Below are positions 48 to 15,774 of a stretch of DNA of 15,775 nucleotides, one piece after another. The position numbers were made by a program, and so were the translations under genes. Position 1 is the first letter of the stretch. Each line of letters opens with the position of its first letter. This DNA comes from Candidatus Borrarchaeum weybense (GTDB lineage: Archaea; Asgardarchaeota; Sifarchaeia; Borrarchaeales; Borrarchaeaceae): contig JAHQJS010000001.1 of the NCBI GenBank assembly GCA_019057385.1, forward strand, positions 74,871 through 90,645, written 5' to 3'. The notes under the pieces were generated by a model. The model worked only from the letters and a program-made list of their open reading frames with translations, was not told the DNA's origin and searched no databases.

Positions 48-3000
48 TTATTCAAGAAGACCCCGTAATCTTTCTTCGGCCTTTCTTTCAGTAATATCCT
101 CATGCTCATCCACTTGGATTTTACTTTCCTTTTTGGCCTTAGCCTTCTTTTCTTTTTCTTCTTTTTCCTTCTTAGCTTTAGCTTCCTTCTCAGCCTTTTC
201 CTTTTTGGCCTTTGCTTCCTTTTCAGCTTTTTCCTTCTTAACCTTTTCAGCCTTGGCCTTAGCATCCTTGTCTTTCTTCTCTTCTACAGACGAATCCTCT
301 TTAGACTCATCCGCTGGTGTTTCCTCTTCGGAATTTTCTTTCGCCTCAGGCTCTTCTGCTGGTGTTTCCTCTTCCTTCACCTCTTCAGATTCTTTTGCTT
401 CGGGCTCAGATTTTTCTTCCTTGTCATCCTTGTCATCTTTGTCGTCATCTTTCTTGTCGTCCTTATCATCCTTGTCATCTTTGTCGGCCTCTCTTTCGGC
501 CTCAGAAGGAACCACATTTTCTATATCCGCTAGCTTCATTCCATAATCTGCGACCTTACTATACTCTCCAGCCTTGAGAGCATCAGATGCCATCTTAATC
601 AAAGCTTTTACACCTTTGGCCACATCAATCTCGTTAATTCCGCACTCTGCCAACTTCTTGAGAATTTGCTTTTCGTTGTCACCCTCTTTTGTAGCCTTGC
701 CTTCCTCCTGCTTTTCCAGCTTTTCAGCTTCTTTGAGAAGCTCCTCAGCTTTGGCTCTCAAACTCTCCGGAGTTTTTTCCTCTTTCATTTCAATATCCCC
801 TACATTTTCATTTTCAGATTTGTTTTGCTCCTCCGACTTTGGAGCTTCTTCTGTTTCCTCCATGGCTTTTCCGCTTCCATCCTTGTCTTTCTTCTCAATA
901 CCAACCGCTCGTTTTTGATACTGAGTATAATCTTTACCAAATTTCTTAAGCATTATAGCATCAATGAGATCTTCTTTCTCAGGCAATGTTTTAGCCTGAT
1001 CACCCATGGCATCTCTGAGCTCTTGCATGGACATCCCATCAAGGATATCCAGTTCTTTTTCAATGGCGGCTACGTCTTCATTTACTGCAAGGCCTCTTTT
1101 AGCTATCTCCTTCTCAACTTCTGCCTTATCAGATTCATAAGTAGCAATTCGATATCCTTCATCCATATGTTTGTAGAATGCTACGAGTTCATCATCCTTC
1201 ATGTCGTAAATGTGGCAAACACATTCGTTCTTTTCCATTGGACAAGGCTCTCCAGCTTCTTTTCTTTTGCCTACATCGCTCATCTGCTTCTGACGTGAGC
1301 CTTTGAACGGTCCTGTCCCATCCCTTTTTCCTGGCGTTTCCTTGCCTTCCTCCTGCTTCTCGCTTTTAGTCAGGAGCTCGTGATAATCAGTTTCATCCAT
1401 ATTTGATAGAGCATCAAGAGTGAGTTCCCTCAAGCCTTCTTCAGAAATCTTGCCAGTTTCATCTTTCCACATGGAAACGAACTCAGGACTAAAACTAAAT
1501 TCTTTTTCATTAATACTAATGATAACATCAGTATCTGATTCCAGAAGAACGTAAACATCAAAAGTATTTCCTTGTGGATCAGTTACTTTCATCTCCTTCA
1601 TTTCTTTTGGCTCAGGAGCTTCTTTGGATTCGGATTTTCTTCGATCTACTTCTACTACATTTCCCTCAGGGTCAACAAGCTCCCAGGCGGAATCCTCCCA
1701 AGCGAAGCCATCGCCTACAGGAATTTCTTTATGATTAAAAGGTTGAATAAACTTTTCATCCGCGTCAGATACTTTGAAATCTTGAGTAGGATCCGATTTC
1801 AAGCGGATTGTCCATCCTCTAATATCAGGAGCCACTCCATCCAACTCTAAATCTTTCCAGCCTAGATCAGTCCAAGTTGTTAACTCATTAATTTTTCTCT
1901 CATTAGTTTTAGATTCTGCTATCCTTTCTCCATCTTTTGACTCCATTCTATGAGATGGTTTTCCTCTTGGATCCTCTTTACCCACATACACTCCTCCAAT
2001 GGCAGTGGCTATTTTTGTGCCAGCGGCATCGGCCGCCTCTTCACTTACAAACGTAAATATCACAGTTGCGGAACGACTTCCTTCTCTGGTCTTTAGAACT
2101 TGCCAACCATCTCCAAGTGACGCCTTATTTATAAAGATGATATTATTTTCATGTGAGGTAAGCTGCTCATTTACTTTCGACTCTCTTGGCTCTCCAAGAT
2201 AACTCATAACAGCACGGGAAATCAATGTTCGTAATTCTTCATTCTCTGTAAGCTGCTTCCATATAAATTCTTCAGAAAAAGTTTCGCCCAGTTCTTCTTC
2301 TGCTTCCCAAGCCTCCCGGATGATAGCAGCCATATTATGAAGTACAGTTCTTTCCCATCCTCTTTCATCTACTTTCGATTCAGATAACTTATCAACTTCA
2401 GCATTATAAGCGTTCCAATAACTTCTATCAGAACTACTTAATGTCTGACCCTTAAGCAGCTTATCTGTAATATCTCCCATCCTTTTCTTAATAGCAGCTT
2501 TATCCCTATTCTTCAGATCCGTTTTGAATCCTTCCTCTATCTTTGATTCATGCTGCTTACTCGCCGCAAGTCTCTCAGGCTCTTCCTCTTCAGGAGCTAG
2601 AGGCTTTTTCTTAGGTTCTTCATACATCTCTACCTCAGGCATCTCTTCTTCTTCTAACCTAGGAAGGATATATTTCAGGAATATTCCACGCTCTATTGAC
2701 GCTATATCAACTTCTCGGATAGCATCAATTATAAAATCAACTACTGTCTCTTCCGAAACTTCTATATTATGATCCCGAGCTGAGAATCTCTTTACTCCTT
2801 CTTGGTCTACAACTACAAAGTCTTCAATCTCGCCTTCTTCACCTTCATCTGTGATAAAATAGTAATGCGTGTCTTCAGTCTTTCCGAGATATTCTTTCCG
2901 TGCTTCTACTGGCTTTTCAGGTTCTTTTACCTCTTCTGGTGGAGGTGGCGGTGCATCTGGATCTTCCTCATCTGGTTCATAATCTTGCTCTGTTAGCTTT

Positions 3001-3422
3001 TTCCTTCCAGCTTCGGCATTCAGGTCTTTGGATTCTTTAATTTTAGATTCAAAACCTGGTTGGTCTCCTAAATCTAATTCTTTAACTGCATTCAGAATGA
3101 TATCTTCTGCTTCAAAAGTTGTGATTCCAAACTTTCTAGCAGCTTCATCTCTAATACCTATCTCATCATAATGACCCTTGGTATCTATCTGATGCATTAT
3201 TTGTTTCTTAATGTACTCCAGAGCTTCTTGGTATATCTGCTCACCAATTCCTTCATTAGCCCTCTTCTCAGCAAGATCGCTTTCGTGAATCTTATCCAGA
3301 AGATTAGTAAAGCGTTCATCTTCTTTCAGCTTGTCATTAGCAGAGCTATGAACGGTTTCTTCAACCTTTTTCTTCTTGGGCATGCCAGGATTTTCTGCTA
3401 TTAAGTCAAAATATTTATCCAT
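48..3422 (-). CDS. 1124-aa acidic modular protein; probable prohead core/internal head protein or polyprotein
   Basis: Long ORF with an AAGGA SD-like site just upstream of the ATG. Very Glu/Lys-rich, with repeated ESKxxE and [ILV]xE motifs between small globular-looking segments and a low-complexity charged C-terminus. The CDS itself is secure; the function is inferred. Confidence 0.85.
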   Translation of the reverse strand: MDKYFDLIAENPGMPKKKKVEETVHSSANDKLKEDERFTNLLDKIHESDLAEKRANEGIGEQIYQEALEYIKKQIMHQIDTKGHYDEIGIRDEAARKFGITTFEAEDIILNAVKELDLGDQPGFESKIKESKDLNAEAGRKKLTEQDYEPDEEDPDAPPPPPEEVKEPEKPVEARKEYLGKTEDTHYYFITDEGEEGEIEDFVVVDQEGVKRFSARDHNIEVSEETVVDFIIDAIREVDIASIERGIFLKYILPRLEEEEMPEVEMYEEPKKKPLAPEEEEPERLAASKQHESKIEEGFKTDLKNRDKAAIKKRMGDITDKLLKGQTLSSSDRSYWNAYNAEVDKLSESKVDERGWERTVLHNMAAIIREAWEAEEELGETFSEEFIWKQLTENEELRTLISRAVMSYLGEPRESKVNEQLTSHENNIIFINKASLGDGWQVLKTREGSRSATVIFTFVSEEAADAAGTKIATAIGGVYVGKEDPRGKPSHRMESKDGERIAESKTNERKINELTTWTDLGWKDLELDGVAPDIRGWTIRLKSDPTQDFKVSDADEKFIQPFNHKEIPVGDGFAWEDSAWELVDPEGNVVEVDRRKSESKEAPEPKEMKEMKVTDPQGNTFDVYVLLESDTDVIISINEKEFSFSPEFVSMWKDETGKISEEGLRELTLDALSNMDETDYHELLTKSEKQEEGKETPGKRDGTGPFKGSRQKQMSDVGKRKEAGEPCPMEKNECVCHIYDMKDDELVAFYKHMDEGYRIATYESDKAEVEKEIAKRGLAVNEDVAAIEKELDILDGMSMQELRDAMGDQAKTLPEKEDLIDAIMLKKFGKDYTQYQKRAVGIEKKDKDGSGKAMEETEEAPKSEEQNKSENENVGDIEMKEEKTPESLRAKAEELLKEAEKLEKQEEGKATKEGDNEKQILKKLAECGINEIDVAKGVKALIKMASDALKAGEYSKVADYGMKLADIENVVPSEAEREADKDDKDDKDDKKDDDKDDKDDKEEKSEPEAKESEEVKEEETPAEEPEAKENSEEETPADESKEDSSVEEKKDKDAKAKAEKVKKEKAEKEAKAKKEKAEKEAKAKKEKEEKEKKAKAKKESKIQVDEHEDITERKAEERLRGLLE
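130..486 (-). repeat. Coding low-complexity tandem repeats: (DKD)n, EETPA x2, AKAKKEKAEKE-like units
   Basis: 9-nt periodic units (tccttgtca-like) at about 420-483 and AKAKKEK.EKE units at about 130-262 lie within the C-terminus of the 1124-aa ORF. Confidence 0.85.
2617..2640. repeat. Copy 1 of an exact 24-bp dispersed direct repeat encoding PEVEMYEE
   Basis: tcttcatacatctctacctcaggc is identical to 10252-10275. Confidence 0.9.
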
Positions 3423-5511: not shown

Positions 5512-5763
5512 TCACATATGTTTCTTTAAGTGCTCAATCTTTTTGTTTGCTTTTTTCTTCTTAACTTCTCTCTCCAACCTAAGAGCATCCAACTTAGTCA
5601 TTTCTTTGCTGACTATCCGTAGAGTTACAGGCAATCTCGTTCTTGTATATTTAGCCCCCTTACCAGAGTTATGAGCATGAATTCTTCTTTTGATATTGTT
5701 GGTGGCTCCACAATAAAGTGTGCCATCACTACACTCAACCAAATATACAACCCAGTTGTTCAT
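5512..5763 (-). CDS. GIY-YIG nuclease, UPF0213 (YazA/YhbQ-like) family
   Basis: [41 protein letters not shown]...ALRLE..VKK matches the hallmark UPF0213 pattern. Confidence 0.92.
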
Positions 5764-5770
5764 ATAATTC

Positions 5771-6601
5771 TCAGTCGCCTTTTACCCACTTCCTGCGCCA
5801 CTCGCCTTCCTCTGCGGCGATCATCACGCCTTCTGCTGAGCCAACAATCGGAGTTTTATATCTTGGATAACTGTACCCTTGAGGATCTATACCAATGAAT
5901 CGCCTTCCATCCGTAGCTATAACCGTGACATTTCCTTGGCCATCTAAAGCGTCAAGAAGGTCGGGGTCTGGAATAGTCTCTTCGAAGTCTTCCAGGGTGT
6001 AAGCAAGAGTATTAAACTCTTCCTCAGTCACTTCGAATGGGCCAACCTGTTCTCCACCTTGCTCGAGAATAGGCTTTCCCTCAGAGTTAACATCTTCATT
6101 AGTATCCTCTGGAATATCTCGAGTTTTGTCTCCGCCTTTCTTGTTCTCCATAGGCTCACTTTCTTCAGCTCTTAGCTTATCGAGTAATTCCAACTTCTCT
6201 TCAGTATCCATCTTATCCAAAATCATTCGGGCTATGGCATAAGGAAGCGGACCTAATTCTGCTTTTTCGTCGAAGAGAGTCTCTATCTTCTCAAGAGGTA
6301 GATTGATTAAAAGTTCAAACAGTTCATCCTCTTCATCAATATCCTCCACCTCTTGCTCTTCAACTTCTGCTGGCTCATCATCCTCCTTGACTCCATCTTT
6401 GTTTTCTTCAGAAGATTCTTCAGACTCCAGAGCAATTACTTTTTCCTTGTCGCCATCTTTGCCTTTTATCTCTTTGGGTTTGCCTCCCATAGAATCCTTA
6501 GCTTCGTCTTGGACATCCACATTCTTGTTCTCATCGTTCTCTACTTTTTCTTTGAAGCTCTCCACCAACTTTTCGAAATTAGCATCGTTTCCTGTACTCA
6601 T
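5771..6601 (-). CDS. 276-aa acidic protein with a C-terminal D-x-Q-G-Y-x-Y-x-R-Y domain; probable internal head or core protein
   Basis: GAGGT SD upstream. Acidic low-complexity N-terminus with LVE, VKE and ILE motifs, and a C-terminal globular segment containing [13 protein letters not shown]. Confidence 0.85.
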
Positions 6602-6622: not shown

Positions 6623-7003
6623 TTACAGAACATTATAAATTGTTTCGCTCAACTTTTCCAAAATGCCGGGAATAAGTAAAGCGAACTCTTTATTCCCATG
6701 CTCACACTCGATAATAATATGCGTCAAGAGGCTGCTAATACCTTTAGCCGTGACGACATCATTTTCTACTTTGCCTTCCTGAATTTTCTTCAGGGTTTTG
6801 TATACAGATTTTCCTTTTAGTTTTTCAACAAGAGCATTCAGAACATCCAAGTCAGAAGGAAGCCTATTAAGTTGTTTCTTACATGATTTAAATTCGCCAT
6901 TCTCAAAAAGCTTTCTCGCTTCATCGACTATAGATTTGTATTCTTCTCTGACAAAATACTTTTCAGCTCTCTGTAGCTTGCTGAATAATTCCATGTTGTC
7001 CAT
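6623..7003 (-). CDS. Hypothetical helical protein (126 aa)
   Basis: The ORF track gives 6623..7045. The ATG at 7003 (MDNMELF) has GGAG upstream and is the likelier start. Confidence 0.8.
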   Translation of the reverse strand: MDNMELFSKLQRAEKYFVREEYKSIVDEARKLFENGEFKSCKKQLNRLPSDLDVLNALVEKLKGKSVYKTLKKIQEGKVENDVVTAKGISSLLTHIIIECEHGNKEFALLIPGILEKLSETIYNVL

Positions 7004-7208
7004 GATGAAATACTCTCCAAATAAAGTAGATGAATGCTCCAACATCCAAAATTAGTTTTGTAATTAACCAGCACACAACCGCGTATGCAAGATTTTTCTT
7101 CATATTAAAATTATGAACGAAGTAAATAACAACTGGTGTATCCAGCATCAGTTTTGTAAGTAACCAAGTGATAACTACATAATCAAGTTTTCTCACTCCT
7201 GCTGACAT
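6963..7208 (-). CDS. Small membrane protein with two internally duplicated TM segments
   Basis: YVVITWLLTKLMLDTPVVIYFV and YAVVCWLITKLILDVGAFIYFI are clear repeats of each other. The ORF starts 3 nt after the stop of the upstream Zn-ribbon gene. Confidence 0.7.
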   Translation of the reverse strand: MSAGVRKLDYVVITWLLTKLMLDTPVVIYFVHNFNMKKNLAYAVVCWLITKLILDVGAFIYFIWRVFHHGQHGIIQQATES

Positions 7209-7211
7209 CTT

Positions 7212-7376
7212 CTACCACTTTCCCGTCCCTGGTCTTTTTCCTTTTGTTCCACAACCGGGACAAATATCATAAAGGTACTCGCCTCCTATATCAACGTTCA
7301 GGTTATATAGCATACCACATTCCGGGCAGCAATGTTCTTCTTCATTAAGAACCGCGGGATATTTGTTCACTCCCAT
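7212..7376 (-). CDS. 54-aa Zn-ribbon protein (not in the ORF track)
   Basis: Manual translation MGVNKYPAVLNEEEHCCPECGMLYNLNVDIGGEYLYDICPGCGTKGKRPGTGKW* has two CPxCG knuckles. A strong AAGGAG SD lies 6 nt before the ATG. Confidence 0.8.
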   Translation of the reverse strand: MGVNKYPAVLNEEEHCCPECGMLYNLNVDIGGEYLYDICPGCGTKGKRPGTGKW

Positions 7377-7995
7377 TTATTCTCCTTCTCTCGTTTATGA
7401 ATTTAGTCCAATATTCTCGATTCCAGTTAACTCTACTATTGCATCCTCCACAAAGAGATAATAGATTTTCTGGATCGCAATTGTTCTTGTCATAATCAAT
7501 ATGATGAATCGCCAGTTTCCTACCAAGCTCCTCTTCCTCAGCGCTTTCGAGCTTCCCGCACAACTGACAAATATGATTATCCCTTCCTCTAATCGATTCT
7601 TTTAATTCTTCGTTGAATTTTATAGGATAAGGAAGATTTGAAGAGCCTCCACTCCAATTATGATTATTTTCGCCACTAACTTTTTCCAATACCTCTGGCC
7701 GGTTCATCGCCTCTTTTTGCGCAATACTAATATTCATAACATGTTCAGGTGATAATGTTCGGCCAGTTAATGAACTCTTTATCTTTTCAATAGCTTCTTT
7801 TGAATGACTTTCTCCTTTCCAAGCATTATTCATATTCTCAATGCACTTCTGAGCAATCTCAGGATGTTTTTCAAAATAAGCTTTCATCCTCCCACTTTGC
7901 TTAGACCTTTCTTCAAGGCTTTGCCATCTTCGCTTAGCCGCTACTCTAAGTTTTTCCTTATATTTTTCGTCTCTTGCAAAAACCCTGCTTGGCAT
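7345..7995 (-). CDS. Free-standing NUMOD3 + HNH homing endonuclease
   Basis: NUMOD3-like repeats (HSKEAIEKIKSSLTGRTLSPEHVMNISIAQK), a GENNHNWSGG linker, then RDNHICQLCG...IHHIDYDKNNCDPENLLSLCGGCN (HNH/HNN with Zn knuckles). Confidence 0.9.
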   Translation of the reverse strand: MPSRVFARDEKYKEKLRVAAKRRWQSLEERSKQSGRMKAYFEKHPEIAQKCIENMNNAWKGESHSKEAIEKIKSSLTGRTLSPEHVMNISIAQKEAMNRPEVLEKVSGENNHNWSGGSSNLPYPIKFNEELKESIRGRDNHICQLCGKLESAEEEELGRKLAIHHIDYDKNNCDPENLLSLCGGCNSRVNWNREYWTKFINERRRINGSEQISRGS

Positions 7996-8457: not shown

Positions 8458-8700
8458 TTACTCTCCTCTTATGCTCCCTTTCTGAGCGATTAGGTCACTA
8501 GTAATGCATGTTGGTGTAGTAAACAATGGAATATATGGGCAATAAATAAAGCCTGCTTTCATAAAATCTACTTTGGTATATCCTGCAATAGTCCGATATT
8601 TTTCTTCCTTTGGCTTCTCTTCACTGAATCCAATTCTTGGAAGTAGGGCTATGGCTATCGCACTTCCTATAGCTTTCTTCAAAAAGATTCTTCTATTCAT
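8458..8700 (-). CDS. 80-aa protein: twin-arginine-like signal plus a T4 gp23 (major capsid) C-terminal-like motif
   Basis: N-terminus MNRRIFLKKAIGSAIAIALLP (NRRxFLK followed by a hydrophobic region). C-terminus AGYTKVDFMKAGFIYCPYIPL resembles the gp23-family motif GYKG....DAG.FY.PYVPL. Confidence 0.75.
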   Translation of the reverse strand: MNRRIFLKKAIGSAIAIALLPRIGFSEEKPKEEKYRTIAGYTKVDFMKAGFIYCPYIPLFTTPTCITSDLIAQKGSIRGE

Positions 8701-9371: not shown

Positions 9372-11387
9372 TTAACCTACGGGTTTATAATGTTTACTTT
9401 TGTAAATCGGTCTGTTATCCCATTCCTCTTGAGATTCAGTTCCGGTATATCTATTCCCTTCCTCATCTTCTTTTATGAAGTATTCATCGTCCACATCCCA
9501 ATATGTTTTTCCACCATCATCAGAAAAACATGATGGGCTTCTCTTCGACTGCCATCGCATACCTTTAACATCTTTTGGTTGATGATTAACTCCATTTTCA
9601 TCCTTCTCTGTTAAATCTTGCCACTCGTCAGGATTATCAGTAAGTTCGGTCAAAGGCTTCCAGTCGGCTAACTTGCTAAATAAATCAGTTGTCCATGCAG
9701 CACTAAAACCTGAATGTCCTTGCCCAGCGAATGCTTGGATTAATTCCATAACAGCTTCGCCAAGAGCTCCTTCATAATCGCTATCCTTATCAAATAACCC
9801 AGCAAGCTCTAACTCATATTTAGCATGGTCAACTAAACCCTCACTAACAGTATATCCAGTCTTATGATGATATTTCATAAGGCCAGATACCACTAAAGAT
9901 CTCAAAACTTCTTCTTCAGGGATACTCAAATTTCTTGAAATCTTTCTAACTGCTTCTTTAGAATCTACATCCTGGCCGATAAGTGTTTTGAACTCTGCAG
10001 CTATCTCTTCATCGTGGGCGGGTGTAATATCTTCATTCTTAGTTGATATATGATGTAGCAATTGCTCTGCATCTTGCCTGCTAAGAGGCTTGGATAATAT
10101 CTCTCCTGTATTCCTATCTACCAAATCCCAGTAGCCATCTCTAACAGGATGTAGTTCAATATCTTCAACCGGTGGGTATATTTTCTTCTGAGGAGTTTCA
10201 TCCGGCTGCTCATCCCATTCATCTTCATCATCATTCCACTCTTCCTCAGGCTCTTCATACATCTCTACCTCAGGCTTAAGCCCTACACCATATCGCTCAA
10301 TCTCTGCTTTAACCATAGTTCTGATTTCATCATTCCATTCAACATACCATGGTGCAGTACTTGCAACATAATCTAATACCGAGTCAACATCAGCTTGTTC
10401 CTCTGGTATCTCTTGGAGATAGGCCTCAATTTGATCTGTTACCCAATCAGGTACTCTTTCTTCTCTTGCCTCTTCAACAACTCCTTCTACTTTCCAGCCG
10501 GCCGCTTTTGCATCAGCTATTGAATCAAACATCGAAACAGCACCAGCAGCATGTGGACCTTTATCATATATGTAAAGCCTTCCGCCTTTGCCTAAGTAAA
10601 GCTCCCAGTCTTCTGAACCTACCCTGGATAAGATAACCTTCTTAAGGCCATCTTCATTTATAGCTTCCCAAGGTTTTCGCTCTTTAGATTTTCCAACTTT
10701 AAGATAGCTTGTCAAATCTTGAGCAGAAGAAATATGAGATCTGGTTTTATCATAAACTCCAGTAGAAGTATAAACAGTACTAATTGGATAGTTTTTGAAA
10801 AGGTACTTAACCGATGCTACTTGTTGAGGTGTTAACTTCCTCTTGCTTCTTAAACCAAGATCCTCATCTTCAGCATCAACATAACCTGCAATGGCTCCAG
10901 CCATCATCAACTCATCATATGAAGTCTTCGCCAACTTAGCTGCTTCAGCATGCGAAAAGGTAACTGGTACGATTGTTCCATCGGTAAGAAGCCAAAACTT
11001 TCTCCAGTCTGCTTCCATTGGATCTTCTTTACCAAAAGTAGTAACCGTCAAACGTCCGTTCAGGATATCCTTAAACCTAACCCTCAACATGTTTTCCGGA
11101 TTTGCTACTTTAGTAGTTGCTCCAGCTTCTTCTATCTCAATCACCGGCTCTACTGTAAATCCATCTCGAGAGCAAAGGAATTCATTCTTCTTAGCCTGGA
11201 GCTTCATTACCATTTTACGGAAAGCCTCGGAATTCTCTTTGCACATATCATCCGCAGTATCAATATCATCGAGTATTCCATAGAGAGCCTTAGCGATGTA
11301 TTCCCAGCTCTTTCCTTCAAAGAGGAACTGAAGCCTACGCTCTATCACTTCTCTATCTCTTATGTTTTCGAAAATACTCTCAATCAT
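9372..11387 (-). CDS. 671-aa acidic multi-domain protein (LDDIDTA domain ... C-terminal GHSGFSA/Tad3-like domain); probable polyprotein
   Basis: Long ORF overlapping the stop of the upstream gene. About 7 compositionally distinct segments are separated by LFE, IEE, INE, VEE, KNE and VSE linkers. The C-terminus reads HAKYELELAG...AVMELIQAFAGQGHSGFSA...KPLTELTDNPDEW...WQSKRSPSCF. Confidence 0.88.
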   Translation of the reverse strand: MIESIFENIRDREVIERRLQFLFEGKSWEYIAKALYGILDDIDTADDMCKENSEAFRKMVMKLQAKKNEFLCSRDGFTVEPVIEIEEAGATTKVANPENMLRVRFKDILNGRLTVTTFGKEDPMEADWRKFWLLTDGTIVPVTFSHAEAAKLAKTSYDELMMAGAIAGYVDAEDEDLGLRSKRKLTPQQVASVKYLFKNYPISTVYTSTGVYDKTRSHISSAQDLTSYLKVGKSKERKPWEAINEDGLKKVILSRVGSEDWELYLGKGGRLYIYDKGPHAAGAVSMFDSIADAKAAGWKVEGVVEEAREERVPDWVTDQIEAYLQEIPEEQADVDSVLDYVASTAPWYVEWNDEIRTMVKAEIERYGVGLKPEVEMYEEPEEEWNDDEDEWDEQPDETPQKKIYPPVEDIELHPVRDGYWDLVDRNTGEILSKPLSRQDAEQLLHHISTKNEDITPAHDEEIAAEFKTLIGQDVDSKEAVRKISRNLSIPEEEVLRSLVVSGLMKYHHKTGYTVSEGLVDHAKYELELAGLFDKDSDYEGALGEAVMELIQAFAGQGHSGFSAAWTTDLFSKLADWKPLTELTDNPDEWQDLTEKDENGVNHQPKDVKGMRWQSKRSPSCFSDDGGKTYWDVDDEYFIKEDEEGNRYTGTESQEEWDNRPIYKSKHYKPVG
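10252..10275. repeat. Copy 2 of the exact 24-bp dispersed direct repeat encoding PEVEMYEE
   Basis: Identical to 2617-2640. Confidence 0.9.
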
Positions 11388-12855: not shown

Positions 12856-13611
12856 TTATTTACGGCTTACCTTTTTCTTATAACTAAATCCAGATACTCC
12901 TGCTCCTTGCCGGATATCAATCCTGTCGGATTCCGCAGAAAGTGATGCTCGGTACACCTCCATGACATCTTCAATCTTCTTGAAGAATCCCAGGCTGCCT
13001 CCTGTGGGCATTCCCGCTAACATTATCCCAACAAGTTCTCCATCTGAATTATAAGCAGGTCCACCGCTGCAGCCTCCCGCACCATAGCTATCTACTTGCA
13101 CTAAATCTACATTCTCAAAAATATCTCTACCAGGATGTGATACAATTCCCTTGGCCAGTGTAAATTTGAATTGCAGATTAAACGGAGTACCTATTGAATA
13201 TACATCCTCGCCCAACTTCGGACAACGACCCGGATGGGCTATGGCCATCTCTTCAATATCTACAGTTATAATAGCAACATCTGTTGCTTCATCAATATAA
13301 ACACTTGTGGATTCCCGGATAGTGCCATCACGTAGTTCAACCTTAGCCTTATCCTGATTGATCATAGTGAATATATGAGCGGCCGTAGCTACTTTATTGT
13401 CCGCTATAAATACTCCAGCTCCGCCTCCTGTTCTTCCGTTTGGTAATGTTACATGTATTGTTGCAGAGGCAGCTACCATGTTATCATATATGCTTCTGGG
13501 ATTATGACTTTCTTTCAATTCAGACCGGACGGTTGATACGCTTAATGCTATAATGTCTCCGATACATGCCAAAATTATAGCAACAAATACAAATGTTTTA
13601 ACTCGTTTCAT
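12856..13611 (-). CDS. Trypsin-like (S1, HtrA/Trypsin_2-type, no PDZ) serine protease with N-terminal signal or TM anchor
   Basis: Catalytic triad motifs TAAHI, DVAII and GCSGGP, plus IGTPF and KGIVS. Hydrophobic N-terminus. AAGGGAG SD upstream. Confidence 0.9.
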   Translation of the reverse strand: MKRVKTFVFVAIILACIGDIIALSVSTVRSELKESHNPRSIYDNMVAASATIHVTLPNGRTGGGAGVFIADNKVATAAHIFTMINQDKAKVELRDGTIRESTSVYIDEATDVAIITVDIEEMAIAHPGRCPKLGEDVYSIGTPFNLQFKFTLAKGIVSHPGRDIFENVDLVQVDSYGAGGCSGGPAYNSDGELVGIMLAGMPTGGSLGFFKKIEDVMEVYRASLSAESDRIDIRQGAGVSGFSYKKKVSRK

Positions 13612-13691: not shown

Positions 13692-15326
13692 TTATATCAT
13701 AACTTTCCTTATTGCCATACTCAGCGTAGACCAGACACTTCCACTTTGAACACGATATTCAAACTCTAAATTCGGATCAAGTTCTACTTCTCTTTCATAA
13801 GCCTGTGTCATGCCAGCAATTACTGAGGTATAAATTCTTCCTGTGTTGACATAATTAACATTACCTTTTTTCCTAAGAAGGATCAATCTCATTGCATCAT
13901 TAACTGTGGCTATTATAACTACCCCAATACGTTTTGTATCGGCTGGGACTTTACCTGCACAAGAAAAAGTATGCCAATCATTATCTTTAATAAAATCATT
14001 TACCAACCAGTCATAATTAGCTGGGTCTCCCGCATCTACTGTGCTTCCACCAGAGCCTCCACCACTGGGGTAATCGTGAGTATGTAAAGCTGTTATTGAA
14101 CCATCGGTTAGCTCTTCCAATTCAGCTGCTGTAACGCCACTCTCTATTGCAGAAACTACTCTATTATTAATTGCAAGAATACCGTCTGGGGTATTGGGTG
14201 GAAGTATGATGATAGATCCATTCTGATCCGGCAACTCTGCCGTCCTTACATTACCTGGTGTAATTTTAGATAAATCAAGTTTCGCTCGCTTGGATGGATC
14301 TTTACCATCAAATAATTCCAGACCATCTATATCCGGCGTGGTTAGAGGAATCATGCTATCTATCGCAGCTTCTACTTCCTGGAAAGGATTATGAACAGTT
14401 ATTGTAGTAGAACCAGCAAACAATAATCCTACTGCCCTTTGACCATTCTTCTCTACAAGCAAACTACCACTATCTCCACCTTGGGACATTAAGGTAGTAA
14501 TTATCTGGTTCTCAAATCTCGCTGTGCCTCCTGGGTAACCTCCAACATCCACCGTGGCATTTATCTGGATAACTTCACCTTCAAGGTATTGAGTCGTTCG
14601 ACCATACTTACGGACGAGCATACCTAAGCTTGCTTCTACTGAACCAGATACTATTCCTATATCCAATATCTCATTTGGTATTACAACATCTGGATTCACT
14701 GGCTTAGCTAAGGCACAGTCTACTTTGTTTAACGCTCCTGGGGTGTAATCTATCGGAACGAAGTTCTCTAAATGAGCAATTGTATCTGCTAGAAGTCCAC
14801 CGTCATAAACACCTGGCTGATAAATTGGGTCGCCAATGCTGGCATTGTTGCCATTAGCTAAGACATGATTATTACTGAGAATATAAACTTCATCTGCTTT
14901 CGGTTGAGCATCAGAAGGCCATCCTATTCTTAAACCATTTACTTGAAAGAATGACTCACCGTCCTTAATAGCTGAGCCTTGAGACCTTGCTATCGTAACA
15001 CCAAGAGTACCAGCGGTGGTACTTGGATGTCCTATACTAACTCCACCTGGAGCAGGGCGGAACTTTCCAGTTGGAATATGATGTACTAATAAATCATTTG
15101 CTTCAAAAACATCTGTTGAAACACCATCAATAGTAGCAGGAACAACATCCTCAGGTGCAAGAGTTCCCGCATCTACTTTCTGAGAAACATTTATTACTAC
15201 TGAAATCTCAGTAGTTTTCACCCCACCAACAAATTTAAAACCTGTTGATACACCAACAACATTCGCCTTACCCATTAATTCTTCTGTGTGATTGTCTTGA
15301 ATCTGTATAATCTCTTCAACAGTCAT
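13692..15326 (-). CDS. Nal1-type trypsin-like serine protease fused to tail-fibre-like C-terminal modules (544 aa)
   Basis: Likely start is the ATG at 15326 after AAGGA. Pro-domain NVVGVSTG.K...V..K...VP..IDGV.TDV, then RPAPGGVSIGH, GTLG, ILSNNHVLA (His), VDCALA (Asp), KYGRTT, GGDSGS (Ser), GLLFAG. This is followed by DPSKRAKLDLS.IT.G..RT..LPD..G, an LHTH motif, a Gly linker and a final beta domain. Confidence 0.88.
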   Translation of the reverse strand: MTVEEIIQIQDNHTEELMGKANVVGVSTGFKFVGGVKTTEISVVINVSQKVDAGTLAPEDVVPATIDGVSTDVFEANDLLVHHIPTGKFRPAPGGVSIGHPSTTAGTLGVTIARSQGSAIKDGESFFQVNGLRIGWPSDAQPKADEVYILSNNHVLANGNNASIGDPIYQPGVYDGGLLADTIAHLENFVPIDYTPGALNKVDCALAKPVNPDVVIPNEILDIGIVSGSVEASLGMLVRKYGRTTQYLEGEVIQINATVDVGGYPGGTARFENQIITTLMSQGGDSGSLLVEKNGQRAVGLLFAGSTTITVHNPFQEVEAAIDSMIPLTTPDIDGLELFDGKDPSKRAKLDLSKITPGNVRTAELPDQNGSIIILPPNTPDGILAINNRVVSAIESGVTAAELEELTDGSITALHTHDYPSGGGSGGSTVDAGDPANYDWLVNDFIKDNDWHTFSCAGKVPADTKRIGVVIIATVNDAMRLILLRKKGNVNYVNTGRIYTSVIAGMTQAYEREVELDPNLEFEYRVQSGSVWSTLSMAIRKVMI

Positions 15327-15336
15327 ATGTTTTTCC

Positions 15337-15774
15337 TTATGCAAACCTATGTATTGTCAAATTAGTTCTTTCACGAGCACCTTGTAAGTTTCTGGGAGCA
15401 GCATTAGATTGAGCAACGAATATTTCTATATACTCTCCGGCAGCTAAATAAACATCTTTAAAGCAGGATACATCAATATTACCTACTGTTGGAAAACAAT
15501 ATCTTAATGTCTGGTCAACAACCTCCCCATTAACTTTTATTTGAAGTTGACAGTTATTGTTTGTATCGAGACTTTGAAACCTTCCATTTGCCTTAACAGA
15601 ATAATACCCAGCATTCGTAGCCGTATACCTATAATTCGTAGAATTATCAAATTCACCATCAATGTCATAATCTTCAGAATCAAATTCAACTTTTTCAAAA
15701 GCGAGGCCTCCTGAAATAGACTGGTTTGTAGAAAGATAAACACTTATTTTCGAACTGAATCCTCCACCTACATT
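15337..15774 (-). CDS. Partial CDS (start lies outside the window): C-terminal C1q/TNF-like domain, probable tail fibre or receptor-binding protein
   Basis: Open frame of 145 codons, not in the ORF track: ...SKISVYLSTNQSI...EKVEFDSEDYDIDGEFDNSTNYRYTATNAGYYSV...LQIKVNG...DVYLAAGEYIEIFV...TNLTIHRFA*. It matches the C1q pattern F-D....D..G.F....Y/F-T....G-Y-Y and L..G(D/E).I. Confidence 0.82.
   Translation of the reverse strand, partial: NVGGGFSSKISVYLSTNQSISGGLAFEKVEFDSEDYDIDGEFDNSTNYRYTATNAGYYSVKANGRFQSLDTNNNCQLQIKVNGEVVDQTLRYCFPTVGNIDVSCFKDVYLAAGEYIEIFVAQSNAAPRNLQGARERTNLTIHRFA

Follow-up and report, generated by a model that had tools for sequence, protein, structure and literature searches.

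In bacteriophage T4, the internal proteins IPI, IPII and IPIII and the protein Alt bear a capsid-targeting sequence (CTS) that is removed by the prohead protease gp21. The CTS comprises the first 10 residues of IPIII, and an Asp at position 10 stops cutting but not targeting (PMC9026906). The specificity of gp21 is L/I-x-E, first seen at a Glu-Ala bond (PMC9026906). One of these cargo proteins, IPI*, which is CTS-bearing, gp21-processed and injected, blocks GmrSD. Several cuts after Glu are made per head protein by a diverged gp21 homologue in the inner-body and ejection proteins of phages phiKZ, 201phi2-1 and SPN3US, the products of which are ejected (PMC9026906, PMC5694885). Unrelated small domains are joined in one chain in the polyvalent proteins, which are mosaic, are encoded among virion genes, and have been proposed to serve as injected counter-defense proteins (Iyer et al. 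2017, PMC5512222). Here we describe P0001, a 671-amino-acid (aa) protein encoded by an uninterrupted open reading frame (ORF), the longest of its region, at 9372..11387 (-) of a 15,775-nucleotide window, the window being the whole stretch of DNA that was analyzed (C1:74871-90645, on contig C1 of an assembly of 8 contigs). Based on sequence comparisons, we consider it reasonably probable that P0001 serves an uncultured T4-type phage as a capsid-cargo polyprotein, packaged and then cut at its joints.

P0001 resembles the T4 cargo proteins in several respects. Its N-terminal segment is a candidate leader, short and with aliphatic-x-Glu at its end; a gp21-type protease is encoded by the same phage; and the gene lies close to the head genes. 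A further resemblance, to IPI*, is that the cargo would include an anti-defense protein. For the Glu-specific cleavage postulated in a previous sequence-only reading of the window, a candidate enzyme is encoded on C1, where a Peptidase_S77 domain (PF03420, T4 gp21-type, a group with the known motif L/I-x-E; 39.8 bits, cut-off 27; C1:73960-74355) lies within a 1235-aa ORF (C1:70762-74469). A gp23-type major capsid protein (PF07068, E 1.7e-36) is encoded at C1:69321-70481. Both genes are on the strand of the P0001 gene, 10-15 kb downstream of it, and together they indicate that C1 derives from an uncultured T4-type phage. The contig has a length of 179,096 bp and a G+C content of 39.2%, compared to 36-38% in the other contigs of the assembly, for which the contamination estimate is 7%. 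The start codon of the P0001 gene overlaps the stop codon of the upstream ORF (ATGA), indicating that the gene is a member of a same-strand operon. Two relatives, P0003 and P0005, are found on contigs of 156 kb and 160 kb that carry gp23 and gp13, amid clusters of genes starting with the same type of leader. A frameshift or an assembly chimera as the source of P0001 was rejected, since uninterrupted relatives have the same architecture.

The modules of P0001 (M1 to M7, with 4 and 5 treated as one unit; Table 1) were delimited by homology, blind to any motif at their borders. When P0001 was compared by BLAST with 35 relatives, the ends of the high-scoring segment pairs clustered at residues 84-87 (16) and 243-245 (6), and the starts at residues 513-514 (16). 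Stand-alone relatives of M4+5 (P0037, P0070, P0073 and P0089; 155-161 aa) aligned from residues 305-309 to 447-452 and stop 0-3 residues from E452, and the start of stand-alone M1 proteins (64-100 aa) aligned at about residue 25. Five of the six borders obtained in this way fall at an [ILVM]-x-E motif (LFE24, IEE87, INE245, VEE306 and VSE516), the exception being KNE452. P0001 contains 19 [ILVM]xE sites in its 671 residues, and the chance that at least 5 of 6 borders would match one within a 5-residue window is approximately 2e-4. The sequence-only reading had described the ORF and the motifs FLFE (21-24), IEIEE (83-87), AINE (242-245), VVEE (303-306), TKNE (449-452), TVSE (513-516) and GHSGFSA (557-563), all of which were found in place with agreeing nucleotide positions; it had also taken the xxE linkers to be domain borders, and the coincidence of alignment ends and starts with the linkers bears this out. 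Internal translation starts at the joints were rejected as an explanation, the residues that follow the joints being A, D, A, D and G, with no Met.

The leaders of stand-alone M2 and M4+5 proteins end in [ILV]xE at the place where fused P0001 has an internal xxE. Stand-alone M2 proteins have leaders such as MFDLLEKLFE, MINLLKKLFE and MFDSLFENLFE, followed directly by VVAT..NPEK, and the equivalent in P0001 is IEIEE87 followed by AGATTKVANPEN. Similarly, the leaders of stand-alone M4+5 proteins (e.g. MKKLLEKLLE, MRELFEKLLSE and MFEKLFEACLNE) lie 4-6 residues ahead of a conserved PDW, which VVEE306 of P0001 precedes by 7 residues; the leaders of P0037, P0070, P0073 and P0089 end in LLE, LNE, LIE or LNE. 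In other fused chains the whole leader is kept internally. P0033 has ..WESRVEDDLLEKILE before VVATKVDPEK, with ..DLLEKILE before VVAT.. in both P0033 and P0049, and internal leaders similar to that of P0033 occur in P0049, P0047, P0081, P0098, P0076 and P0082. The presence of leaders both at the starts of stand-alone proteins and inside longer chains indicates that the proteins of this family are concatenated leader-plus-cargo units. By this comparison, the internal leaders of P0001 appear as forms shrunk to their last three residues.

The pattern of conservation at the joints was determined from alignments. At the N-terminal border of M2 (a 60-copy alignment), the column of E87 was Glu at P1 in 48 of 50 informative rows, with I, V, L or M at P3 in 46 of 50; P2 was occupied by 14 different residues, and P1' was mostly A, V or S. 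This pattern agrees with the published gp21 logo of L/I-x-E. The [ILVM]xE motif was found just upstream of M7 in 47 of 57 fused proteins, of internal M2 in 32 of 38 cases, of N-terminal M2 in 20 of 20 and of M4+5 in 7 of 7, compared to a background of 2.6% per position; note that these counts are over related sequences rather than independent events, which weighs against our interpretation insofar as nominal binomial p-values overstate their significance. Beyond M1 the motif occurred in 45 of 59 fused proteins, in most of them in the form R-V-[D/N]-E and at a distance of exactly 5 residues from the domain, but in only 9 of 39 stand-alone or C-terminal copies, where it had no fixed place. The argument for a site rests on this contrast between fused and stand-alone copies and on the freedom of P2: conservation of P3 and P1, drift of P2, and a post-M1 motif that is frequent in fused but rare in stand-alone copies point to selection on the site when the modules are fused. 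The joint motif thus appears to be conserved as a site and not as part of the fold. The alternative that [ILV]xE is part of the domain fold was rejected because stand-alone M1 and Tad3 proteins lack the motif, or start or stop there.

Profile matches place M7 in the Tad3 family. Residues 518-639 matched PF25185 (Tad3, type I Thoeris inhibitor) with an E value of 5.4e-33 (113.7 bits, cut-off 27; profile positions 3-110 of 119), this being the single PF25185 copy detected in a whole-genome scan. A profile built from 46 copies of M7 matched Tad3 as crystallized with ThsB (9b7d_B, 194 aa) with an E value of 5.4e-10, and the alignment of profile positions 29-117 to Tad3 residues 33-120 places Tad3's own N-terminus at about the start of M7. 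Tad3 was reached by profile only, single-sequence PDB searches (phmmer) with residues 1-512 and 500-671 having returned nothing; a Foldseek search with the full P0001 model listed 9b7d_D with a probability of 0.75 and approximately 18% identity. A profile of M1 gave no match to 9b7d, and the crystallized Tad3 has no M1. A 2026 review describes Tad3 as a homodimer that attaches to the TIR protein ThsB through contacts made by its N-terminal helices, and Tad3 is known to restore phage growth on type I Thoeris (PMC13728456). The sequence-only reading held that the last segment begins right after VSE, where homologues would have their own start, and sequence comparison supports this. A stand-alone Tad3-like gene from a Rhizobium phage (138 aa) starts MSLKEFAKDEL and one from a Xanthomonas jumbo phage (MSLSNH..) starts MSLSNHARRELELAGL, while P0001 at the same place has E516-GLVDHAKYELELAGL. 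Because the Met of both phage genes aligns with E516, the initiator Met takes the place of the P1 Glu, and the next residue is the first of the predicted product. Elsewhere in the same assembly, outside the window and on a chromosomal contig (C6:741104-744397), a ThsB-type TIR protein is encoded (PF08937, 92 bits; PADLOC ThsB1, 221 bits; PDC-M50B, 224 bits), adjoined by a PDC-M50A protein and with no ThsA-like SIR2 gene in view there; this protein is a possible target for a Tad3-like inhibitor.

We also examined the N-terminal leader. In the AlphaFold2 (AF2) model the leader forms a helix from residue 2 to 23, followed by a break before the first helix of M1 that includes E24, and LFE, IFE or VCE is kept at positions 22-24 in orthologues (P3 being L, I or V). 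A position-specific scoring matrix of 9 residues was trained only on stand-alone M2 and M4+5 leaders from other phages, with internal Met-started 9-mers as the null. This matrix ranked the head-proximal genes of C1 first, and of the 51 N-termini from the Tad3-fusion family it scored 29 higher than the null's 99th percentile. At 57-66 kb of C1, beside the head genes, unrelated proteins start with MHELIEKLHE, MFELLEKCLCE, MIDLIDKLVE, MRNLLEKILKE and similar sequences, and the related phage loci L006 and L008 contain the same run of leader-bearing genes, with the Tad3 fusion gene in its middle. Other window proteins also have a leader-like start ending in x-x-E: a 1124-aa protein (48-3422 (-)), a 276-aa protein (5771-6601 (-)) and a 140-aa protein (6623-7045 (-)), the leader-like stretch of the last reading ..MELFSKLQRAE. 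The 1124-aa protein, which is very acidic, Lys-rich and repetitive, starts MDKYFDLIAE, a sequence that we take to be close to the T4 internal-protein leader.

A word-index search identified 35 relatives of 371-1002 aa, all but one containing Tad3, and an exhaustive HMMER search with residues 1-512 of P0001 identified 218 proteins at E <= 1e-3. Module hidden Markov models (HMMs) were built from six segments of P0001, and their matches were counted over 173 collected proteins (Table 1). The commonest family plan was leader-M1-(variable content)-Tad3. In the minimal forms, P0113 and P0072, M1 is fused straight to Tad3, and the middle of other relatives contains GNAT, HNH, lysozyme or cytidylyltransferase domains. 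The sequence-only reading had proposed that stand-alone genes were recruited into P0001; rather than an open series of such genes, the family shows a ground plan in which variable modules stand between M1 and Tad3. With extra modules inserted where M1 meets Tad3, this ground plan points to the linker there, which bears the protease site, as a docking point for new cassettes. M3 was found elsewhere only in fused form, in P0003 and P0063 and each time after I-x-E, and M6 elsewhere only in P0003, after V-D-E. Segments 4 and 5 had been proposed as separate units; unit 4 does occur alone in P0071, a 71-aa gene of locus L008, but in stand-alone relatives the two are mostly together. The metagenomic proteins P0044, P0040 and P0041 consist of four to six tandem M2 copies separated by ..D-E followed by A-V-A-T, and look like polyproteins of a single cargo type.

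Deposited sequences and domain libraries yielded little for the remaining modules. No match to the P0001 gene was obtained by Megablast in 50,697 phage records, and tblastn against deposited phage genomes matched only residues 479-660 (most matches covering 507/518-658), essentially the Tad3 module, indicating that these genomes lack modules 1-5 at the sensitivity of this search. For M1 to M6 no name was obtained from Pfam, PHROGs, the PDB or fold libraries. Pfam detected nothing in the stand-alone M1, M2 or M45 proteins and only Tad3 in P0001, and ESM Atlas feature searches with M3 and M6 produced no usable match.

The full-length protein was modeled from a whole-protein alignment; a fragment-based alignment was dropped as misaligned, its M7 fragments having 13-27% identity compared to 50-60% by BLAST. 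The full-length AF2 model had a predicted template modeling score (pTM) of 0.35, which corresponds to no fixed arrangement of the domains. The predicted local distance difference test score (pLDDT) fell below 50 at residues 83-92, 236-239, 241-247, 304-308 and 372-400, the last being the acidic spacer, as well as in a short loop inside M1 (46-50), with milder dips at 451-460 and 501-520. In the model, E516 is flanked by a beta hairpin and the first helix of Tad3, and E452 lies at the end of a helix. P0001 is thus predicted to resemble a string of beads, the joints being where confidence is lowest. M2 modeled alone had a pLDDT of 89.7 and a pTM of 0.82, with approximately the first 10 and last 17 residues floppy; near its C-terminal border is a near-invariant E241 within 'PWEA'. 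M3 was predicted to contain five strands and one helix. With the M2 fold as query, Foldseek found nothing in the PDB at E <= 1e-3, and the only BFVD matches (E 4e-4 to 1e-3) were to uncharacterized domains within large phage proteins. The best VIA-wide match to M2 (Z 5.3) was to half of a metallo-beta-lactamase fold and is not meaningful, and template modeling scores in the Atlas were at most 0.49 by query.

Table 1. Leader and modules of P0001, with their positions in the window and the matches of the corresponding module HMMs among 173 collected proteins.
Feature	Residues of P0001	Window position (strand)	Description and C-terminal border	HMM residues	HMM matches
Leader	1-24	11316..11387 (-)	single predicted helix that ends at L-F-E24 / G25; candidate propeptide for capsid targeting		
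Module 1	25-87	11127..11315 (-)	LDDIDTADD helical domain; ends I-E-E87 / A88	25-82	115 proteins, including 64-100-aa stand-alone proteins
Module 2	88-245	10653..11126 (-)	FWLLTDG alpha/beta domain; ends I-N-E245 / D246	100-240	101 copies spread over 63 proteins; tandem runs of up to 6
Module 3	246-306	10470..10652 (-)	small beta unit; ends V-E-E306 / A307	248-302	3 proteins
Module 4+5	307-452	10032..10469 (-)	acidic helical unit, disordered acidic spacer 372-400, GYWDLVD beta/helix unit; ends K-N-E452 / D453	312-448	8 proteins
Module 6	453-516	9840..10031 (-)	three helices and beta hairpin, winged-helix-like in model; ends V-S-E516 / G517	455-512	2 proteins
Module 7 (Tad3)	517-671 and stop codon	9372..9839 (-)	Tad3-family domain with GHSGFSA motif	520-655	57 proteins

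We propose a mechanism in which the putative amphipathic leader (residues 1-24) would bring P0001 to the core of the assembling prohead, the role that the T4 CTS has for IPI-III and Alt. There the gp21-type serine protease would cut after Glu at exposed [I/V/L]-x-E sites, these being E24, E87, E245, E306 and E516, and perhaps also at E452. The 24-residue leader would leave the head, and pieces of 63, 158, 61, 146 (or 146+64 uncut), 64 and 155 residues, five or six small folded proteins in number, would stay inside to be ejected with the DNA. The Tad3 piece (517-671), the new N-terminus of which matches the stand-alone Tad3-like start to the residue, would meet a host ThsB-type TIR sensor before phage gene expression and would block it.

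Several points weigh against this interpretation, in addition to the relatedness of the sequences in the motif counts. The sequence-only reading had likened the leader to the T4 CTS, and this holds for the T4-CTS-like leaders on stand-alone M2 and M4+5 and for the orthologues of P0001, which score clearly; the first nine residues of P0001 itself are at the 96th percentile of the leader null, a moderate match. In addition, the usual first site reads I-R-D in P0001. As with the Asp at the usual first site of T4 IPIII, this would be expected to permit targeting but not cutting, so that the leader cut must be placed at E24. The joint at TKNE452 does lie near a module border, as had been claimed, but with a non-aliphatic Lys at P3 and a position at the end of a predicted helix it is a poor site, and the weakest of the six. 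Stand-alone homologues delimited by the linkers, for which a search of each segment had been suggested, were obtained for segments 1, 2, 4+5 and 7, but not for 3 and 6: none was found for M3 in searches that included an IMG/VR scan and a word-index search for short proteins, nor for M6 in searches that included an IMG/VR scan. P0001 is strongly acidic, with 78 Glu and 60 Asp per 671 residues, whereas the T4 internal proteins are basic. The T4 late promoter (TATAAATA) occurs 2 times in the window, neither occurrence being upstream of the P0001 gene and the frequency being no higher than by chance. Finally, the specificity of the C1 protease is assumed by analogy with T4, and packaging of P0001, its cleavage, and an anti-Thoeris activity of M7 are things that we infer.

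Other explanations would account for parts of these data. P0001 could be packaged and relieved of its leader, perhaps with a few residues more, and then enter the host largely uncut as a multidomain counter-defense protein, comparable to the polyvalent proteins and to the N4 virion RNA polymerase, the [ILV]xE joints being flexible linkers inherited from fused leader-bearing genes. The whole internal leaders of P0033 and P0049 demonstrate that such fusion relics occur, and for polyvalent proteins packaging in the form of multidomain chains has been predicted (PMC5512222). In addition, in nearly all relatives M1 stands at the front and Tad3 at the end, which suggests a need for joint action in cis within one uncut chain and so tells against cleavage; we think it more likely that this near-constant order arose as new cassettes were inserted into an ancestral leader-M1-Tad3 gene at the linker with the protease site. 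Inherited linkers are also hard to reconcile with P3 and P1 conserved while P2 drifts over dozens of diverged internal joints, or with a post-M1 motif that is common in fused copies and rare in stand-alone ones. The verified Tad3, moreover, is a free 194-aa protein that starts at the module border, with N-terminal helices that contact ThsB (PMC13728456). We therefore regard an uncut chain as rather unlikely.

A cytoplasmic role is also conceivable, in which P0001 would be an unpackaged multidomain anti-defense protein made during infection, its leader and xxE joints serving as linkers, for solubility, or as sites of another protease. The known Tad3 acts as an expressed cytoplasmic protein, and the lack of an upstream T4-type late promoter, the modest leader score, and the presence 1.5-4 kb upstream of two proteases, one trypsin-like (PF13365, E 6e-21) and one NAL1-like, would all be accommodated. 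The motif, with Glu at P1 and an aliphatic residue at P3, nevertheless fits the specificity of gp21 and not that of a trypsin-like enzyme. The gene is also on the same strand as, and inside, a structural and head-cargo region, standing in two related phages in mid-run of leader-bearing genes by gp23 and gp13, and the same leader is borne by unrelated small proteins clustered by head genes. These observations make a cytoplasmic protein, to our minds, distinctly improbable. Least credible of all, and in our estimation very improbable indeed, is a role in assembly, by which P0001 would help to build or size the prohead core and then be cut up and expelled like T4 gp22, gp67 and gp68, its modules not being effectors. 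T4 core proteins typically undergo several cuts by gp21 (PMC5694885), and the acidic composition and the disordered acidic spacer at 372-400 would fit. The modules, however, are compact folded domains (M2 having a pLDDT of 89.7) and not coiled coils, one of them is a Tad3-family anti-defense domain, and module content is highly variable among close relatives, unlike that of an essential scaffold.

Taken as a packaged and processed polyprotein, P0001 differs in several respects from the systems described above. T4 cargo consists of single proteins with one N-terminal cut, whereas P0001 has one 24-aa leader and six modules with further sites, and is acidic. Unlike T4 cargo, its modules recur as separate leader-bearing genes, in tandem arrays and in other orders. 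In the giant-phage proteins the extra S/A-x-E sites are mostly in discarded propeptides, leaving one mature fragment; in P0001 the pieces between sites are folded domains, with stand-alone relatives for M1, M2, M4+5 and M7, and P3 is aliphatic as in T4, not Ser or Ala. Like polyvalent proteins, the P0001 family combines domains, six module types occurring in many arrangements over 173 proteins and in a structural-gene context. Pfam, however, detected in P0001 no MuF, zincin-like MPTase, ART, ParB or methylase domain, these being the polyvalent hallmarks, and while the processing of polyvalent proteins is ascribed to a built-in MPTase, the joints of P0001 carry a prohead-protease motif and its units CTS-like leaders. 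The verified Tad3, 194 aa long, is expressed in the cell as a protein of its own, whereas the Tad3-family domain of P0001 forms the C-terminal part of a 671-aa chain encoded by a T4-type phage. In the literature found on the prohead protease and on internal and ejection proteins, polyprotein is not used as a term, and in the literature searched a CTS is linked to anti-defense only for T4 IPI*. With no polyprotein precedent found, and with polyvalent proteins differing in peptidase and domains, we rate P0001 as a probable novel arrangement of known T4-type cargo; what would be new is the organization of T4-type capsid cargo as a cassette polyprotein.

Additional features were observed in the vicinity of the P0001 gene. 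An exact 24-bp repeat is shared by the P0001 gene (window 10252..10275 (-), within M4+5) and the gene for the 1124-aa protein (2617-2640); both copies encode PEVEMYEE in an acidic spacer, and the repeat may be a trace of recombination between cargo genes. An HNH-like ORF (window 7345-7995 (-)) had weak Pfam matches under the cut-off (E 2e-4), and a small ORF among the cargo genes (window 5512-5763 (-)) is GIY-YIG-like by its sequence; these two may be homing endonucleases that aid the shuffling of cassettes. Two further proteases adjoin the cargo genes 1.5-4 kb upstream of the P0001 gene, namely the trypsin-like peptidase (window 12856-13611 (-)), which has a hydrophobic N-terminal segment, and a 550-aa protein (window 13692-15344 (-)) in which a NAL1-like protease N-domain (E 2.9e-6) precedes a tail-fibre-like C-terminal part. 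An 80-aa ORF amid the phage cargo cluster (window 8458-8700 (-)) starts with a twin-arginine-like signal, MNRRIFLKKAIGSAIAIALLP.

We tentatively extend the polyprotein interpretation to the T4-type group, in which a general grammar of head loading, consisting of a leader, cargo and an aliphatic-x-Glu site, may allow small genes to be plugged in singly, as a tandem array, or as a link of a polyprotein. The M1/Tad3 linker would be the insertion point for cassettes, and one leader would co-deliver a counter-defense set in fixed ratio, including a Tad3 that silences the TIR sensor before phage gene expression. The inhibitors known against Thoeris, CBASS and similar systems are regarded as being produced once infection has begun. 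If our interpretation is correct, P0001 would be the first case of a pre-packaged inhibitor of a signaling-type defense, and the first of a polyprotein strategy by which a phage ejects its effectors. With the capsid as its carrier, such an inhibitor would be active from the first second, in the manner of T4 IPI* against a restriction enzyme, and this would change the view of the timing between sensor and inhibitor. By association, the modules M1, M2, M3, M4/5 and M6 would be prime candidates for anti-defense proteins. The leader-plus-site grammar would also provide a search rule, requiring nothing but sequence, for capsid cargo and hence for candidate anti-defense proteins in uncultured T4-type phages. 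Finally, P0001 would offer a natural design for the delivery of several proteins in fixed ratio from one T4-type head, with a bearing on T4-based vehicles.

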